This document shows positions 9,272 to 55,898 of a stretch of 64,000 nucleotides of DNA, piece after piece (the first letter of the stretch is position 1; each line of letters opens with the position of its first letter). The stretch is from Candidatus Omnitrophota bacterium (lineage in GTDB: Bacteria > Omnitrophota > Gorgyraeia > Gorgyraeales > Gorgyraeaceae). A model generated the notes under the pieces. The model was given only the letters and a program-made list of their open reading frames with translations, was not told the DNA's origin and did not search any database. The DNA is taken from contig JBDRJN010000003.1 of the NCBI GenBank assembly GCA_043814965.1, positions 1,600 through 65,599 on the forward strand, written 5' to 3'. Both the position numbers and the translations under genes were made by a program.

Positions 9272-9284
9272 AATTTTTATCCCA

Positions 9285-9318
9285 TGAAAACTCTGGAGCG
9301 GGTGATGGGAATCGGCGC
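9285..9318 (-). repeat. Partial duplicate of tRNA-Gly 3' end (T-loop to CCA plus about 11 nt trailer)
   Basis: 33/34-nt identity with 9413-9448 (cat[g/a]aaaactctggagcgggtgatgggaatcg). The 95 nt between the copies cannot be folded into a cloverleaf. Confidence 0.6.
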
Positions 9319-9427
9319 CCGCCTTTGGGCGGGTCGGCCACTCGTCCGCTAAACGTATACTCCTATTCGTCGTATACAGCGGACTCACTTCGATTCCACT
9401 TAACCGCTGCAAAAATCATAAAAACTC

Positions 9428-9501
9428 TGGAGCGGGTGATGGGAATCGAACCCACGCAGCGAGCTTGGGAAGCTCGTATTCTACCATTGAATCACACCCG
9501 C
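9428..9501 (-). tRNA. tRNA-Gly (anticodon CCC)
   Basis: Minus-strand sequence GCGGGTGTGATTCAATGGTAGAATACGAGCTTCCCAAGCTCGCTGCGTGGGTTCGATTCCCATCACCCGCTCCA folds as a 74-nt cloverleaf. It has a 7-bp acceptor, ATTC/GAAT D-stem, CGAGC/GCTCG anticodon stem, loop TTCCCAA, GTGGG/CCCAT T-stem, and an encoded CCA. Confidence 0.9.
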
Positions 9502-10418: not shown

Positions 10419-11692
10419 TTAAAGTACCTCTTTATTGTTTTCATCGAACAGAAATCACTGCACATAGTGCATACGTCCTCTTTTTTTGGAGTAGATGACT
10501 TCCTGTAACGTGTAGATTTTTCAGGGTCTATGGATTCTTTTATCTGCGCTTTCCAATCTCTCATCAAGCGATGTTTTGACATCTTTCTATCCCAGTTTAT
10601 AGCACCTGGAACGCGTTTAGCGATATCAGCTGCGTGCGCAGCTATCCTGGAGGCTATGACGCCATTTTTTACATCATCCTCATCTGGTATCCTGAGGTGC
10701 TCAGAAGGGGTCACATAACATAGGAAATCCGCCCCATAGTAAGCTGCCAGGGCGCCGCCTATCGCGCCTACTATATGGTCATAACCAGGCGCGATGTCAG
10801 TGACCAAAGGGCCCAATACATAAAAAGGCGCGTTCCCGCACATCTTTTTTTGTATCAGGACATTTGATTCGATCTCATCCAGGGGAATATGGCCAGGGCC
10901 TTCTATGATCACCTGTACATTTTGTTTTTTTGCTTTTTCAGCCAACTCACCCAGCAAAATAAGTTCTTGTATCTGAGCCCTGTCAGTAGCATCTACTAAT
11001 GTGCCTGGCCTCAAGCCATCTCCCAGGCTCAGGGTCACATCATATTCTTTTAAGATCTTTAATATATCATCAAAATATTCATATAGAGGGTTTTCTTTTT
11101 TATTCAGTATCATCCATTCTGCGAGAAACGAACCGCCCCTTGACACTATAGGTATCAATCTTTTTTTTCTTTTCAACCTGGTAAGTGTTCCCTGGGTCAC
11201 GCCGGAGTGTATAGTAAAAAAATCCACGCCATCTCTTGCTTGTTCGTAAAGGGCGTCCAATAGATCGTCTTTTGTCATCTTTGATATACTGCCTTTTTCT
11301 TTACATGCCTTGATAGCTGCCTGATAAATAGGGACAGTCCCTACTGGTATACTGGAATTCCTGACTATAGCCTTACGTATTTTGTTTATGTCCCCGCCCG
11401 TAGAAAGGTCCATTACCGCATCCGAGCCGTATTTTATTGCAGCGCGGAGTTTGTTTAGCTCAGTCTTAAGGCTTATTTTATCAAGGGATGTGCCAAGGTT
11501 CGCATTGACCTTTGTTCTCAGGCCTTCACCTACTGCGCAAGGGAGTATCTTTCTTTTTTTATTTTTAATAAGCACTACCCTGCCGTTTTTTATGAGAGTC
11601 TTTAACTTGTCTATTGGTATGCCCTCTTTTTTAGAGGTATACCTCATCTCAGCAGAGGTCCTATTGAGTTTAGCGGATTCTAATTGTGTCAT
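10415..11692 (-). CDS. thiC: Phosphomethylpyrimidine synthase
   Basis: 425 aa with the C-terminal CTMCSDFCSMK radical-SAM-like ThiC cluster motif and a conserved N-terminus. Confidence 0.85.
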   Translation of the reverse strand: MTQLESAKLNRTSAEMRYTSKKEGIPIDKLKTLIKNGRVVLIKNKKRKILPCAVGEGLRTKVNANLGTSLDKISLKTELNKLRAAIKYGSDAVMDLSTGGDINKIRKAIVRNSSIPVGTVPIYQAAIKACKEKGSISKMTKDDLLDALYEQARDGVDFFTIHSGVTQGTLTRLKRKKRLIPIVSRGGSFLAEWMILNKKENPLYEYFDDILKILKEYDVTLSLGDGLRPGTLVDATDRAQIQELILLGELAEKAKKQNVQVIIEGPGHIPLDEIESNVLIQKKMCGNAPFYVLGPLVTDIAPGYDHIVGAIGGALAAYYGADFLCYVTPSEHLRIPDEDDVKNGVIASRIAAHAADIAKRVPGAINWDRKMSKHRLMRDWKAQIKESIDPEKSTRYRKSSTPKKEDVCTMCSDFCSMKTIKRYFK

Positions 11693-12202: not shown

Positions 12203-12679
12203 CTAGCTGTTCCTTATCTTTTTAATAATATCTTTTGTAGAAAACCCTTTTATAAAAGGGAGGCTTTTTACTTTTCCCTTGTAGGTTCGGACAATGTCCG
12301 AACCTACAATATCTTTTATCTTCCAATCCCCGCCTTTTACAAGAACATCAGGCCTTATATTTTCTATTAGCTTAATAGGCGTAAGTTCATCGAATACTAC
12401 TACAAGATCTACGCTCTTAAGGGCCAGGAGGACATTTCCCCTGTCAGAGGCTTTTACTATAGGCCTGGAAGGGCCTTTTAATCTTTTGACAGAGTCATCA
12501 CTGTTCAGGCCTACGATCAGTATGTCTCCCAGGCTTTTGGCTTTTTGTAAATAACTTATATGCCCTACATGCAATATATCAAAACAGCCGTTAGTAAAGA
12601 CTATTTTTTTATTTTTATATGCCTTTTTTTTAAGCTCTTTTTTTAGGCTTGTAAGAGAGGTTATATTTTTATAAAGCAT
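12203..12679 (-). CDS. D-glycero-beta-D-manno-heptose 1-phosphate adenylyltransferase (RfaE domain II / HldE C-terminal)
   Basis: Cytidylyltransferase motif [19 protein letters not shown], 158 aa. Confidence 0.8.
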
Positions 12680-31522: not shown

Positions 31523-31565
31523 GGGAAATGGTGGGAATGATGCTTTTTTACAATATACGGAATAT

Positions 31566-31601
31566 ACAACGTAGGGGAGCTTTAAAGCTCCCCTACGTTG
31601 T
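31566..31601. repeat. GTAG...TTAA...CTAC palindromic hairpin, copy H1 (36-nt perfect palindrome)
   Basis: acaacGTAGGGGAGCTTTAAAGCTCCCCTACgttgt, downstream of the lipoprotein gene. There is no U-tract. Confidence 0.6.
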
Positions 31602-31627
31602 ATGTCAGATAATATTATAGAATACTA

Positions 31628-32752: not shown

Positions 32753-32778
32753 GTAGGGGACACTTAAGTGCCCCCTAC
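32753..32778. repeat. GTAG...TTAA...CTAC palindromic hairpin, copy H2
   Basis: GTAGGGGACACTTAAGTGCCCCCTAC, 25/26 palindromic. Confidence 0.55.
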
Positions 32779-32962
32779 ATCTCGTTGTTACCCCTGTTTT
32801 ATCCCTCGCCGCATCATGTCATTACCCCTCGTTTCGTAATGTCGTTCAAGGGAAACTCGGGGTTATTTTTTGAGCTTACGCTCAAAAAATAAAAAAACCG
32901 AACCCTTTCAAATAAAAGGCTCTGCCATAAATAAAAATAACTTTCTTGGCAACCCGGCTGTC

Positions 32963-32988
32963 CTGATCAATTGTAGCAGACACTTAAG
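32963..32988. repeat. GTAG...TTAA...CTAC palindromic hairpin, copy H3 (compensatory stem variant)
   Basis: GTAGCAGACACTTAAGTGTCTGCTAC is a perfect palindrome. The inner stem GGGA/TCCC of other copies is replaced by CAGA/TCTG. Confidence 0.55.
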
Positions 32989-33224
32989 TGTCTGCTACCT
33001 CATAATTGAGGACCCGTGGCTTTGCGTCCTGTGATTGCTCACAGTTTGCCCTTTTACTGAAAGTAAAAGTATAATTCAATATTCAGTTGTCATGTTGGAA
33101 AATTTAGTTTGCCTCCTTATTATTAAGTACTTCTGATCCTAATATAAATATACCATAGGTTTATGAGGATTCAATAGCAATTGGGTAAAAATCTTAGGTA
33201 TTTTTAGAAATTTCAGGTATTTTA

Positions 33225-37099: not shown

Positions 37100-37254
37100 C
37101 CCCTCTTAGAAAATATTAAATATTAAAAATTAAATATCAAAATTACAAATTAAAATGTAAATATTTTTTGGTTATAAGTCTTTGTTTTTAAATTTTGAAT
37201 TTTAATATGTAATTTTAATTTTTGCATTTTGATTTTTGATATTACAATGTTATG
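37100..37254. repeat. AT-rich imperfect palindrome containing the shared 20-mer AAATATTAAATATTAAAAAT (element A)
   Basis: The 20-mer at 37110-37129 is identical to 60554-60573. The right half (TTTTGCATTTTGATTTTTGATATT) is roughly the reverse complement of the left half. It lies directly upstream of the pgm SD AGAGGGGG. Confidence 0.5.
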
Positions 37255-42959: not shown

Positions 42960-44921
42960 TTAGTCTATGATCGTTTCGCACTCGGGGATCGAGTTTAGGA
43001 AAGTCTGGCCGTATGGTTTGTCTATTATGCGGCTATCGAGGATGGCTATTATGCCTGTGTCGGATTTACTTCTTATGAGCCTTCCGAACCCTTGTTTGAA
43101 CCTCAACACTGCTTCAGGTAAACTATACTCCAAAAATGCATCCCTGCCTTTATTTTTTATGTCATCCATCCTGGCCTGTGTTATCGGGTGGTCAGGGACC
43201 TGGAAAGGCAGTTTTGTTATTATGACATTAGAGAGCGCTTCGCCCTGGACATCCACTCCCTGCCAAAAACTGTCAACGCCAAAAAGAATAGACCCTTTTT
43301 GTTTTTTAAAATCCCTCAACATCTTGCTCCTATCAAGCCCATTGTCTTGCTTTAACACGTTAAACTTTTTCTCTGCAAAAAAATCCTCAAGCTCTTCATA
43401 GACCATGTTCATGAGAGAATAACTTGTAAAAAGCACAAATGCGTTTCCGCTGGTAAGCCCTACCAGCTTTTTGATCTTTTGGGATGATGCCCTGGCAAAA
43501 TCTACCAAGTGATTAGGGTTTGGCATGCCCTTGGCTATATACATCCGGACCTGTTTTTTGTAATCAAATGATGAGCCTAGCTTTAGTTCCCTGGCATTTT
43601 TTATGCCTAAGCGGCTCTTGAAATACAAAAAAGAAGCATTGTCTATGGAAAGCGTAGCGCTTGTAAATATCGTGGCCTTTTCCATAGAATAAAGCCTTTC
43701 TTCCATTATCTCGCCTATATTTACTGGCGCAATATTGATAGAGACCTTGCTGGACCTATCTTTTCCTGAACACTCCATCCAATAGACATGATTATCGAGG
43801 TCATGCCTCAATATGATATCAAGGGACGTCTTTATGTCGCTTATCTTTTTTATAAGGGACGTTAATTCTACCTGCCCTTCTTTATCGTCAGTATCTTTCT
43901 TGGAATCCATAAGGCTCTCTATCAGCTTTGTCAAAGGCGCCTGGAGGCTGTTTTCTATAAAATCCGGGGTATTGATCATCATGGAATCAGATTTATTGTC
44001 TTTTGCATGGCTTTCGAAATATTTCTTTATTTTTTTAAAAAAACTTTCACTTTTTTTCCGTACTGCCTGCGACCATTCCATGGAATCCTGGGAACCTACG
44101 GTAAGCAAGATACCTTTTTGTTTTTGAGGATTGAATAAAAGGTCCATGAGATATCTTATATAAGAATTGGATACGCTTAAGCCCAGGTGCTCTGTAGCTA
44201 CGTTCTCTATAGAATGCGCTTCGTCAAAGACAATAGTATCATAGTCAGGCAATATAGATTTACTTTCTTCGCTCATGGCTAAATTTGAAAAGAACAGGCT
44301 GTGATTGATGACCAATATCTTTGCATTATCTATCTTTTCCCTGGCATTTTGAAAAAAACAGGCCTTAAAATAAGGGCAGGCCTTTCCCATGCAGTTTTCT
44401 GGATCCGATGAGACCATGTCCCATACTTTTCTATCTATCTTTTCGTCCAGGTCATAGAGCGAGCCATCGGATGTCCTGTAAGACCATGCTGTTACCCTGG
44501 CAAACTGCATCACCTCGTTCTCGTCTGAAAAAAGGTCTTTTTGCTTAAAATCAGACCTTCTCAGCCTTCTAAGGCATAGATAATTCCCTCTGCCTTTTAC
44601 AAGTACTGCCTTAAAATCAATACCCAGGGCGTTTTCTAAAAAAGGTATGTCCTTATGTATGATCTGTTCCTGTAGATTGATCGTGTTTGTGGATATGACG
44701 GCTACGGAGTCTTTTTTTAGCGTGTATTGCGCTATAGGGATAAGATATGAAAAGCTTTTTCCGACACCAGTACCAGCCTCGACAATAAGCGTCTCGGATC
44801 TAGAGATAGCATCTTTTATTGCCTCTGCCATCTCGACCTGTTCAGGCCTCTTTTCATAGCCTGGCAAAACTTTCGCTATAGGCCCTGATTCATCGAATAT
44901 ATTTTCTATATAATTACTCAT
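42960..44921 (-). CDS. dinG: DinG/Rad3-family ATP-dependent DNA helicase
   Basis: GTGVGKS Walker A, DEAH box (VFDEAHSIE) and the C-terminal helicase motifs. 653 aa. Confidence 0.75.
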   Translation of the reverse strand: MSNYIENIFDESGPIAKVLPGYEKRPEQVEMAEAIKDAISRSETLIVEAGTGVGKSFSYLIPIAQYTLKKDSVAVISTNTINLQEQIIHKDIPFLENALGIDFKAVLVKGRGNYLCLRRLRRSDFKQKDLFSDENEVMQFARVTAWSYRTSDGSLYDLDEKIDRKVWDMVSSDPENCMGKACPYFKACFFQNAREKIDNAKILVINHSLFFSNLAMSEESKSILPDYDTIVFDEAHSIENVATEHLGLSVSNSYIRYLMDLLFNPQKQKGILLTVGSQDSMEWSQAVRKKSESFFKKIKKYFESHAKDNKSDSMMINTPDFIENSLQAPLTKLIESLMDSKKDTDDKEGQVELTSLIKKISDIKTSLDIILRHDLDNHVYWMECSGKDRSSKVSINIAPVNIGEIMEERLYSMEKATIFTSATLSIDNASFLYFKSRLGIKNARELKLGSSFDYKKQVRMYIAKGMPNPNHLVDFARASSQKIKKLVGLTSGNAFVLFTSYSLMNMVYEELEDFFAEKKFNVLKQDNGLDRSKMLRDFKKQKGSILFGVDSFWQGVDVQGEALSNVIITKLPFQVPDHPITQARMDDIKNKGRDAFLEYSLPEAVLRFKQGFGRLIRSKSDTGIIAILDSRIIDKPYGQTFLNSIPECETIID

Positions 44922-44958
44922 AATTTATTCCTTGCCAACCAAGAACAAATAAAGCTGC

Positions 44959-45120
44959 ATCCTGCCTGTCTGTGAGTGCTGTTTGAGAGGCCTTTTTCTT
45001 TTGAGCGGGCACGGTTCGCCCTTATGTATATCAGGCGGGAGCGAAAAAGAAAACGGAGTAAAATTTCCACGCCGGGGAAATTTTACGTCCTCGAGAACAG
45101 TACTCACAGGCAGGCAGGAT
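44959..45120 (+). repeat. Structured repeat element, copy 1 (about 162 nt) closed by a 25-bp terminal inverted repeat
   Basis: TIR ATCCTGCCTGTCTGTGAGTGCTGTT / AACAGTACTCACAGGCAGGCAGGAT (23/25). The internal core is about 90% identical to the reverse complement of 55692-55844. It abuts the plsY stop codon. Confidence 0.6.
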
Positions 45121-45752
45121 CATCTCTTACTTTTACTAAAGAGCTTTATTTTTCTTTCTTCGCCTTCTTTTAGGCGTTTTATGTTGGAGCGGTGCTTATA
45201 TACTATCACTATGCATAATAGTGACATCACGACCACTATTTCTGTGCTTTTATTGAATAAGAACGTCAGGATAGGTATTGCGATAGCTGCTACGATAGAA
45301 GCCAGCGACACATAACCTGTTACACCAAACACAACCGCCCATACAATAAAGCCAAGTATAAAGATCTTCGGTATAAGCCCTACTATCACGCCTGCGCTGG
45401 TTGCTACGCCTTTTCCGCCTTTGAACCTAAGGAACACTGTCCAGTTATGGCCTGCTATCACTGATAGGCCCATGAGTACTTTATATAATTCTGGCCTTGT
45501 AAAAGGAGCTATATACATAAATAGATCTGCAAGATAAGTTACCGCGATATAGCCTTTTAGCATATCTGCTAGGAGGACTACGATACCAGGGGCTTTACCA
45601 ACAACCCTGAATGTATTGGTAGCGCCTATATTACCGCTTCCGAACTGCCTTATATCAATACCTTTTACGATCTTTCCAGCAATATAGGCAGTAGGTATAG
45701 AGCCTATGATGTATGTTACCAACAGGCCTAAAGATAATACAAGATATGACAT
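45120..45752 (-). CDS. plsY: Glycerol-3-phosphate acyltransferase PlsY
   Basis: SGNIGATNTFRVVG motif, 210 aa, polytopic. Confidence 0.85.
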   Translation of the reverse strand: MSYLVLSLGLLVTYIIGSIPTAYIAGKIVKGIDIRQFGSGNIGATNTFRVVGKAPGIVVLLADMLKGYIAVTYLADLFMYIAPFTRPELYKVLMGLSVIAGHNWTVFLRFKGGKGVATSAGVIVGLIPKIFILGFIVWAVVFGVTGYVSLASIVAAIAIPILTFLFNKSTEIVVVMSLLCIVIVYKHRSNIKRLKEGEERKIKLFSKSKR

Positions 45753-47883: not shown

Positions 47884-48032
47884 GGATAAATTCGGACAGT
47901 GACTTACATTCACTCCGCCCGGCCTGCTGTTAAGCAAGCTCCGTAAACATTATACAGAATTATTATCCCTCGACATACAGTGTCATGCGATTATGGCTCG
48001 GGATAAATTCGGACAGTGACTTACATTCACTC
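47884..48032. repeat. Two 32-nt direct repeats (47884-47915 and 48001-48032) in the acsB-acsC spacer, plus a 10-bp hairpin at 48017-48055
   Basis: GGATAAATTCGGACAGTGACTTACATTCACTC occurs twice, 117 nt apart. GTGACTTACA (48017-48026) pairs with TGTAAGTCAC (48046-48055). Confidence 0.55.
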
Positions 48033-55625: not shown

Positions 55626-55667
55626 CAGCCTGTTAGGCCTTTAAAAAAACGTTCTACAAGCTTAAGT

Positions 55668-55868
55668 CTTGTCTGCTTATAGGGTACTGTTTTCGAGGAC
55701 GTAAAATTTCACCAGCGTTGAAATTTTACTCCGTTTTCTTTTTCGCTCTCGCCTAAACCCTATCTACGGTAGGGGAGCCTTAAGGCTCCCCTACTAGTTT
55801 TTGAGAGGGCGAACCATGCCCTCTCAAAAGAAAAAGGCCTCTCAAACAGTACCCTATAAGCAGACAAA
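55668..55868 (-). repeat. Structured repeat element, copy 2 (about 201 nt; inverted relative to copy 1) with its own 24-bp terminal inverted repeat and an inserted GTAG...CTAC hairpin (55769-55794)
   Basis: TIR CTTGTCTGCTTATAGGGTACTGTT / AACAGTACCCTATAAGCAGACAA (23/24). The core matches copy 1. There is an extra 26-nt perfect palindrome GTAGGGGAGCCTTAAGGCTCCCCTAC. Confidence 0.6.
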
Positions 55869-55898
55869 TCCAAACTTGAACCTTACCCTAAAAAAACA

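Follow-up and report, generated by a model that had tools for sequence, protein, structure and literature searches.

We describe here a family of short, non-coding foldback repeats from Omnitrophota, with a unit of about 160 nt, which is on balance probably a non-autonomous mobile element of the MITE/REPIN kind. The family is previously undescribed and is found in no Rfam family and in none of the plasmid and phage collections searched. Its members share a maintained structure, lie in both orientations, occupy sites that are empty in relatives, are flanked by direct repeats and take part in nesting. Their common fold consists of a closing stem (P1) of 24-30 bp, free in sequence yet always paired, an arm (P2) in which the cap GGGC-AYGGUUC-GCC stands beside a stretch that tolerates large nested insertions, and a hairpin (P3) with the loop CGCYGG.

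Two copies of a branched foldback repeat

The window, a stretch of 64 kb (64,000 nt) from a Candidatus Omnitrophota MAG, has all of its genes on the - strand and holds two copies of the element, in opposite orientations and at unrelated loci. The copies and their parts, with the strand that carries the core, are as follows.

44959..45120, +: copy 1, complete foldback element (alignment, fold, covariance model 188 bits)
44959..44984, +: copy 1, 5' arm of P1, 26 pairs with 45095-45120, 3 of them G.U on the + strand
44991..45056, +: copy 1, arm P2, with a U-rich/A-rich stem of 44991-45002 paired with 45044-45056
45058..45086, +: copy 1, hairpin P3, stem of 11-12 bp, loop with the conserved CGCYGG
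45095..45120, +: copy 1, 3' arm of P1, the last base being the first base (on +) of the plsY stop codon
55668..55868, -: copy 2, complete foldback element (alignment, fold, covariance model 163 bits)
55701..55729, -: copy 2, hairpin P3 (fold and alignment)
55769..55794, no strand assigned: copy 2, 26-nt GTAG...CTAC perfect palindrome GTAGGGGAGCCTTAAGGCTCCCCTAC, nested in the P2 apex (sequence)
55799..55829, -: copy 2, extended P2a hairpin, GAGAGGGC-ATGGTTC-GCCCTCTC

The coordinates and the conserved core proposed in the first-pass annotation of this DNA were borne out. Blocks of 27, 29 and 18 nt are identical between copy 1 (+) and the reverse complement of copy 2, and 22- and 27-nt words of the core occur at these two places only in the window, where none would be expected (none in shuffled sequence). 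Compared with shuffled sequences, the core strand folds with -84 kcal/mol in copy 1 (z = -9.3) and -107 kcal/mol in copy 2 (z = -12.2); the complementary strands of both copies also fold well. The fold common to both copies is a three-way junction closed by P1, which passes through a 2x2 GA/GA internal loop and continues as GAGG/CCUC. The P2 arm has a U9/A9 stem capped by GGGC-AYGGUUC-GCCC (GGGC-ACGGTTC-GCCC in copy 1, at 45007-45021) and a variable stretch, and P3 is formed by GUAAAAUUUC...GAAAUUUUAC, with a compensated transversion at its apical pair (C-G to A-U). The GTAAAATTTC hairpin predicted earlier is present, and the long closing stems were confirmed, with 26 bp including 3 G.U in copy 1 and 24-25 bp including 1 G.U in copy 2. 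About 40 extra bases swell the P2 apex of copy 2, among them the palindrome GTAGGGGAGCCTTAAGGCTCCCCTAC, which is confined to this copy as first reported.

The arms of P1 had been described as completely different between the copies, and this proved incorrect. Once an indel of one base pair is allowed the two stems align; five pairs differ on both sides (G-C to A-U) and four on one side, each of the latter giving G.U on the core strand. All of these differences are transitions, with no transversion, and pairing is kept throughout; a random 22-mer aligns to the copy 1 arm without transversions at a frequency of about 3.5e-5. When the window was scanned with the copy 1 arm, the copy 2 arms were among only seven matches. 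A search of the window for solo arm palindromes, which allowed up to 3 mismatches and also used R/Y-degenerate patterns, returned nothing beyond the copies themselves. The shared arm motif CAGGCAG/CTGCCTG was not relied on: it occurs 14 times in the window against about 4 expected, is fairly common in coding DNA and is found in both arm orientations as well.

Copy 1 abuts the stop codon of plsY and reaches towards the start of a DinG-like helicase gene; its core strand (+) is antisense to both genes. Copy 2 lies between folD and the MTHFR gene (metF) in the Wood-Ljungdahl cluster with its core strand (-) in the sense orientation. This context, with gene labels taken from Pfam, agrees with the first description. 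Another repeat is present in a Wood-Ljungdahl spacer: a perfect 32-nt direct repeat (47884-47915 and 48001-48032, 117 nt apart) within the 255-nt spacer between CdhD-like and CdhC-like acetyl-CoA synthase genes.

Neither copy could be assigned to a known family or to a gene. Rfam (15) gave no match at gathering thresholds for the window copies and five related loci, and generic hairpin matches alone appeared below threshold; BLAST against plasmids and phages gave no match to the copies. The six-frame peptides of both copies, concatenated, matched nothing among 5.8 billion proteins, and the copies showed no conserved open reading frame and no coding signal. 6S RNA, Y RNA and riboswitches were dropped for lack of an Rfam signal or a defining neighbour. 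Retron msr-msd regions have flanking a1/a2 inverted repeats and an adjacent reverse transcriptase gene; the neighbours here are plsY, dinG, folD and metF, with no reverse transcriptase at any copy. Integron attC sites have conserved outer RYYYAAC...GTTRRRY sequences around a variable centre and lie in cassette arrays; the present family has, the other way round, variable outer ends and a conserved centre, and its sites are housekeeping operons.

Relatives in other Omnitrophota and the case for a structured RNA

Homologues of PlsY and FolD gave access to orthologous loci, amounting to about 270 kb of related sequence, which were searched with covariance models built from the copies. This search, which the first-pass annotation had called for, uncovered relatives in other Omnitrophota (L022, L024, L025 and L030). 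One family copy lies in the sense orientation in the folD-metF spacer of L022/L023 (10865-11025; 108 bits, then 163 bits), and the same element, also counted with the sense copies downstream of folD but with a broken 3' arm beside a different gene, was found in L024. A second occupies the folD-metF spacer of L025 in antisense (10887-11079; 54 bits), and a third the spacer between NuoF-like and ferredoxin genes of L030/L031 (12095-12455; 76 bits). The family is thus present in the folD-metF spacer of three lineages (window, L022 and L025). Exact-word scans, with a 22-mer in 185,579 species genomes, a 20-mer in JGI metagenomes and 27-mers in viral contigs, gave chance matches or none; they missed the family because its relatives differ by a few substitutions inside those words. 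The absence of the core elsewhere in the clade, which had been named as an outcome that would speak against an element family, was therefore apparent in these scans only.

Kept across the lineages are UUUGAGAGGCC, GCGGGCACGGUUCGCC, GCGAGAGC, AAAACGGAG, the P3 loop CGCYGG and GUCCUCGA. P1 and P3, and in L030 P2 too, are rewritten in sequence with their pairing preserved, and the outer arms differ between all lineages. Among six family sequences, compensatory changes were found in 38 of 58 pairs and 95.5% of cells are paired, compared with 42-52% in slid controls and with 0 of 500 shuffles reaching the observed values, in an alignment that was fitted to the covariance model and is biased toward the structure. 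The earlier proposal of a structured element family with a covarying closing stem is supported in both respects by these figures. Six clear wobble pairs are G.U on the core strand, against at most one of the opposite type, A.C; this bias is no more than suggestive.

Such a pattern would also be expected of a host-functional structured RNA, either a small RNA gene or an operon element acting in cis on processing, stability or attenuation, whose structure is kept by selection and whose copies are paralogues. The strong covariation in P1, P2 and P3, the invariant loops and junctions (AYGGUUC, CGCYGG, AAACGGAG and GUCCUC), the near-exclusive G.U wobble pairs, the transitions-only divergence of P1 in the window copies, which is the route through G.U intermediates, and the sense orientation between folD and metF in both the window and L022 all fit this explanation. 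Set against it, copy 1 and the L025 copy are antisense to their operons, and no promoter-like site precedes copy 1 on the core strand; the promoter/terminator scan yielded no convincing small-RNA promoter and only a weak hairpin with a U-tract, on the anti-core strand. DNA-level copying from arm to arm can, moreover, mimic covariation. Together with the occupancy, nesting and direct repeats reported below, these points make a host-functional RNA rather unlikely as the origin of the family. A role as RNA recruited by the host is compatible with mobility and is itself unlikely, to a similar degree.

Filled and empty sites

Three insertions could be resolved against empty sites in relatives. The plsY/dinG site carries neither element nor hairpin in L004, L022, L023, L026 and L027, where the two genes overlap or abut (TAATG in L004, ATGA in L022, and an overlap also in L023, L026 and L027). 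In the window, ATGA stands at both sides of a 198-nt block that contains copy 1, and 37 extra bases separate the stem from the second ATGA. The features at this site are listed below.

44918..44921, no strand assigned: TCAT (ATGA on the gene strand), including the dinG start codon; direct-repeat copy flanking the inserted block
45120..45123, no strand assigned: TCAT (ATGA on the gene strand), including the plsY stop codon; second direct-repeat copy
44941..44956, no strand assigned: spacer segment that repeats 45142-45156 of the plsY reading frame in inverted form, 15/16 bases agreeing (p about 0.001 in comparison with shuffled flank)
45142..45156, -: last part of the plsY reading frame, encoding ERKIKL (which the relative has kept), pairing with 44941-44956 as an inverted duplication

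Sixteen of the 37 extra bases thus invert the ERKIKL codons of plsY, so that the stem reaches into the gene. The L030 site is empty in L020, whose genes simply overlap there by ATGA, and in L030 itself (A)ATGA flanks a 365-nt block. The L022 site is empty in L026-L028, where FolD shares 89.5% identity with the protein of the filled L022; these loci have a 12-nt spacer, TAG-AAAGGAAGTAAA-ATG, and the 172-nt block of L022 has ATAG(A) on either side. The inverted repeat of the L022 and L030 insertions nearly reaches the direct repeats, and the block termini differ from copy to copy. Direct repeats of 4-5 nt therefore mark all three resolvable insertions. Two of the three are the functionally required ATGA; since only insertions that duplicate ATGA leave both genes intact, selection rather than mechanism may partly explain these repeats. 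Copy 2 and a weak outward extension of its stem, GGTTCAAG/CTTGTAGAAC, are bracketed by a 9-nt direct repeat, TAAAAAAAC (on +; 55642-55650 and 55889-55897), which could represent a target duplication or have arisen by chance in T-rich sequence.

The occupants of the folD-metF spacer vary. Whereas the window, L022 and L025 carry the family, the closest relative (GCA_043821705.1; FolD 85% identical) has two unrelated hairpin elements at this spot (L019), and L020 and L026 have almost nothing. This patchy occupancy fits invasion and not an inherited regulatory RNA.

The filled and empty sites also bear on the origin of the arms. The first-pass annotation had considered a small mobile element that enters the loops of pre-existing host hairpins, so that the conserved core would be the element and the arms would be host-derived. 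Nested hairpins do exist: one GTAG palindrome is lodged in the P2 apex of copy 2 and another in the variable loop of a c-di-GMP riboswitch, and in L030 a family copy occupies the P2a loop region of another, as a 223-nt insert after GCGGGCACGGU that is an inverted relative resembling the L025 copy, with perfect 26-bp arms. Precedents for such insertion are the REPs that serve as insertion targets (PMC1525189) and the REPs embedded in longer palindromes (PMC3733652). But the simple hairpin that this explanation places at empty sites was found at none of the three (ATGA or TAATG overlaps and a 12-nt spacer), the arms of copies 1 and 2 are homologous and differ by transitions only, no solo arm palindrome exists in the window, and L022 and L029, which carry different elements at one locus, have arms without significant similarity. 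Because the empty sites are free of hairpins and the arms of the copies are homologous, the arms are not inherited from host hairpins. A hairpin-loop origin of the arms is refuted for copy 1, L022 and L030, and as a general account of the family it is highly improbable. Of the earlier suggestion of a small mobile element, the mobility is supported by polymorphic insertions and short direct repeats, and the derivation of the arms from pre-existing host hairpins fails.

The element shares its surroundings with other hairpin repeats, which in relatives occupy spacers of similar kinds. The window contains five perfect GTAG...CTAC palindromes, 26-27 nt long, which constitute a family separate from the 160-nt element. 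Their positions, assigned from sequence and without strand, are:

12281-12307
31564-31603
32753-32778
32973-32998
55769-55794

One of them is part of a longer perfect palindrome of 40 nt. The five have unlike stems around a centre that is usually CTTAAG, and they too are variable but self-complementary. The riboswitch interrupted by the palindrome at 32973-32998 is a c-di-GMP-I-GGC riboswitch at window 32944-33059 (-), scoring 62.6 bits against a gathering score of 59. Further intergenic hairpin-repeat families, R1, R2 and an AT-rich AAATGAC family, were noted in the closest relative (L019 9050-9411, 178-290 and 12930-13054; L004 1281-1377, 3599-3700 and 10187-10272). R1 (L019 9050-9151 and L004 1281-1377), which is unrelated to the present family, resembles it in two respects, the copy-specific arms and the reach into a flanking gene: it has a core conserved at 90% and outer arms that are different but self-complementary, one of which mirrors the folD stop region. 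A further repeat, which we call 'Family B' (L029 1685-1880 and L025 11080-11330; about 190-250 nt), has the core GGGGTCTGARGCRCATTAGA...GGCAAAAGTCCGC and different outer arms, occupies the folD-metF spot in two lineages (L029 and L025) and has no match in Rfam; it folds as a rod and was rejected as a member of the three-way-junction family.

Three other observations concern repeats and junctions in this DNA. In L024 (1600-1629), within one metagenome, the copy downstream of folD ends inside its 3' arm and is joined to an H+-pyrophosphatase gene, either because the DNA was rearranged at the palindrome or because the assembly is chimeric. A 32-nt direct repeat in the window (9283-9314 and 9417-9448; 97% identical, 134 nt apart) overlaps the 3' part of a tRNA (9431-9501, -) and resembles the tRNA-end duplication that integrating elements leave behind. 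Between two genes, at window 37111-37237, lies an imperfect AT-rich inverted repeat whose 51-nt arms are 71% complementary.

Known mobile repeats and a proposed mode of movement

The element resembles several described repeats without matching any of them. Classical MITEs, such as Correia/NEMIS of Neisseria and ERIC/IRU (PMC3184786), are likewise 100-200 nt long and non-coding, end in inverted repeats, lie in spacers of co-transcribed genes in either orientation and form long RNA hairpins on transcription. The family is short, non-coding and dispersed, with two copies in the window and further ones at two additional loci of relatives. MITE termini, however, are conserved in sequence and match a parent IS, whereas the arms here differ between lineages and no parent IS was found nearby; the branched conserved core is unusual as well. 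MITEs also duplicate their target site at a fixed length; the possible counterparts here are the direct repeats of 4-5 nt at the resolved insertions, which at copy 1 enclose 37 extra bases, and at copy 2 only the 9-nt T-rich repeat.

REPINs are hairpin-forming REP doublets that owe their mobility to RAYT tyrosine transposases (Bertels and Rainey, 2011; PMC3116915). In a REP-RAYT system the RAYT gene is present once and has the repeat on its flanks. The family is like them in being short, non-coding, intergenic and multi-copy, in forming long single-strand hairpins, in its compensatory changes and in its persistence in lineages (PMC3116915), and REPINs are the closest concept to it. In REPINs, though, the REP arms are conserved and the spacer varies, whereas here the three-way-junction core is conserved and the arms vary; moreover, neither a GTAG-tagged arm nor a cognate RAYT was found in the 64-kb window, and direct repeats flank the insertions. 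The 26-27-nt GTAG...CTAC palindromes of the window do fit the tag and size of GTAG-tagged REPs (Di Nocera et al., 2013; PMC3733652), but they are a separate, smaller repeat and the 160-nt element has no GTAG tag of its own. Palindrome-targeting insertion sequences, namely IS1397/ISKpn1 in palindromic units of E. coli and ISPpu9, ISPa11 and others in REPs (PMC1525189), similarly place a conserved insert between palindrome halves, and the nested hairpins of these genomes are similar; unlike their targets, the empty sites here hold no palindrome and the arms belong to the element. These insertion sequences, and the REPs in longer palindromes (PMC3733652), are precedents for nesting and not for the origin of the arms.

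A derivation from IS200/IS605, which the first-pass annotation named for comparison, or mobilisation by a RAYT, would make the family a PATE or REPIN whose hairpins are recognised by a Y1 HUH transposase. Recognition of structure would explain the non-conserved termini, REPIN hairpins likewise show compensatory changes (PMC3116915), and the five GTAG-tagged palindromes of the window are of a RAYT-associated type (PMC3733652). The closest relative does have a RAYT-like Y1 transposase gene (Y1_Tnp, PF01797) in its dinG-trpB interval (L004 8324-8809). The imperfect inverted repeats on either side of this gene are unrelated to the family, and the gene is absent from the syntenic site in the window. 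A tblastn search for Y1 transposases in the 64-kb window found none. The three resolved insertions carry 4-5-nt direct repeats, and IS200/IS605 elements are not known to make a target duplication. The REPIN layout of conserved arms and variable middle is reversed in the family, and the window copies lie in opposite orientations on a replichore-like stretch with all genes on the - strand. PATEs have subterminal hairpins and neither terminal inverted repeats nor a target duplication, and insert 3' of a fixed tetra- or pentanucleotide; the PATE assignment was rejected, given the long terminal stem, the flanking direct repeats and flanking tetranucleotides that differ (ATGA vs ATAG). The IS200/IS605-like origin is thus not supported, and we regard mobilisation by a Y1 transposase as very unlikely.

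Non-autonomous mobility remains the explanation we favour, and several points count against it. No transposase, reverse transcriptase or other partner gene was seen in the window or, from the gene tables, beside any copy. The block termini are not conserved, which a classical DDE transposase would not tolerate between copies. The ATGA overlap itself accounts for two of the three direct repeats, and the recurrence at folD-metF in three lineages, the strong core conservation and the G.U bias (6 vs 0-1) also fit an RNA used by the host. It had been expected that termini recognised by a transposase would be conserved; the termini differ between copies, and mobility is nonetheless supported by the polymorphic insertions.

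Copies have come to lie in tiny spacers or in the 4-base overlaps of co-transcribed genes, in either orientation, and the 4-5-base direct repeat on both sides of the inserted block restores stop and start codons. The mover may recognise the conserved junction and loops rather than the ends; recognition is placed in the core because the ends are not conserved between copies. Complementarity of the arms could be kept by selection on a folded single strand, or by DNA-level arm-to-arm copying through template switching or quasi-palindrome correction. Arm copying would account as well for stems that run on into neighbouring coding sequence, and the inverted flank duplications favour some DNA-level copying. 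In an operon transcript, the 25-30-bp duplex would be a potential processing or stability site, and a copy in antisense orientation would appear as a hairpin followed by a U-tract. In its most specific form, this account would have the element move via the folded single-stranded three-way junction and not via its ends, yet with 4-5-nt target duplications, often at ATGA overlaps, and with arms regenerated or extended from the opposite arm or the flank; we offer it as a speculation that is quite unlikely to be correct in full. If it were true, junction-recognising transposition, whether DNA- or RNA-mediated, would be a mode not described for bacterial MITEs, and it would explain why several unrelated hairpin families here have a conserved core and a copy-specific stem.

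The family is grouped with MITEs and REPINs in kind, but its branched core, free termini and flanking duplications form a combination without a known mechanism, one that lies outside the standard MITE/REPIN models and points to an undescribed mobilising activity. The palindromes can break assemblies, as the truncated 3' arm of the L024 copy illustrates, and are relevant to MAG quality. For the uncultivated Omnitrophota, these results suggest that tightly packed operons, the Wood-Ljungdahl cluster included, have repeatedly been invaded by structured hairpin elements, which split overlapping genes while stop and start codons are restored and which may place long double-stranded RNA inside operon transcripts, with relevance for expression.
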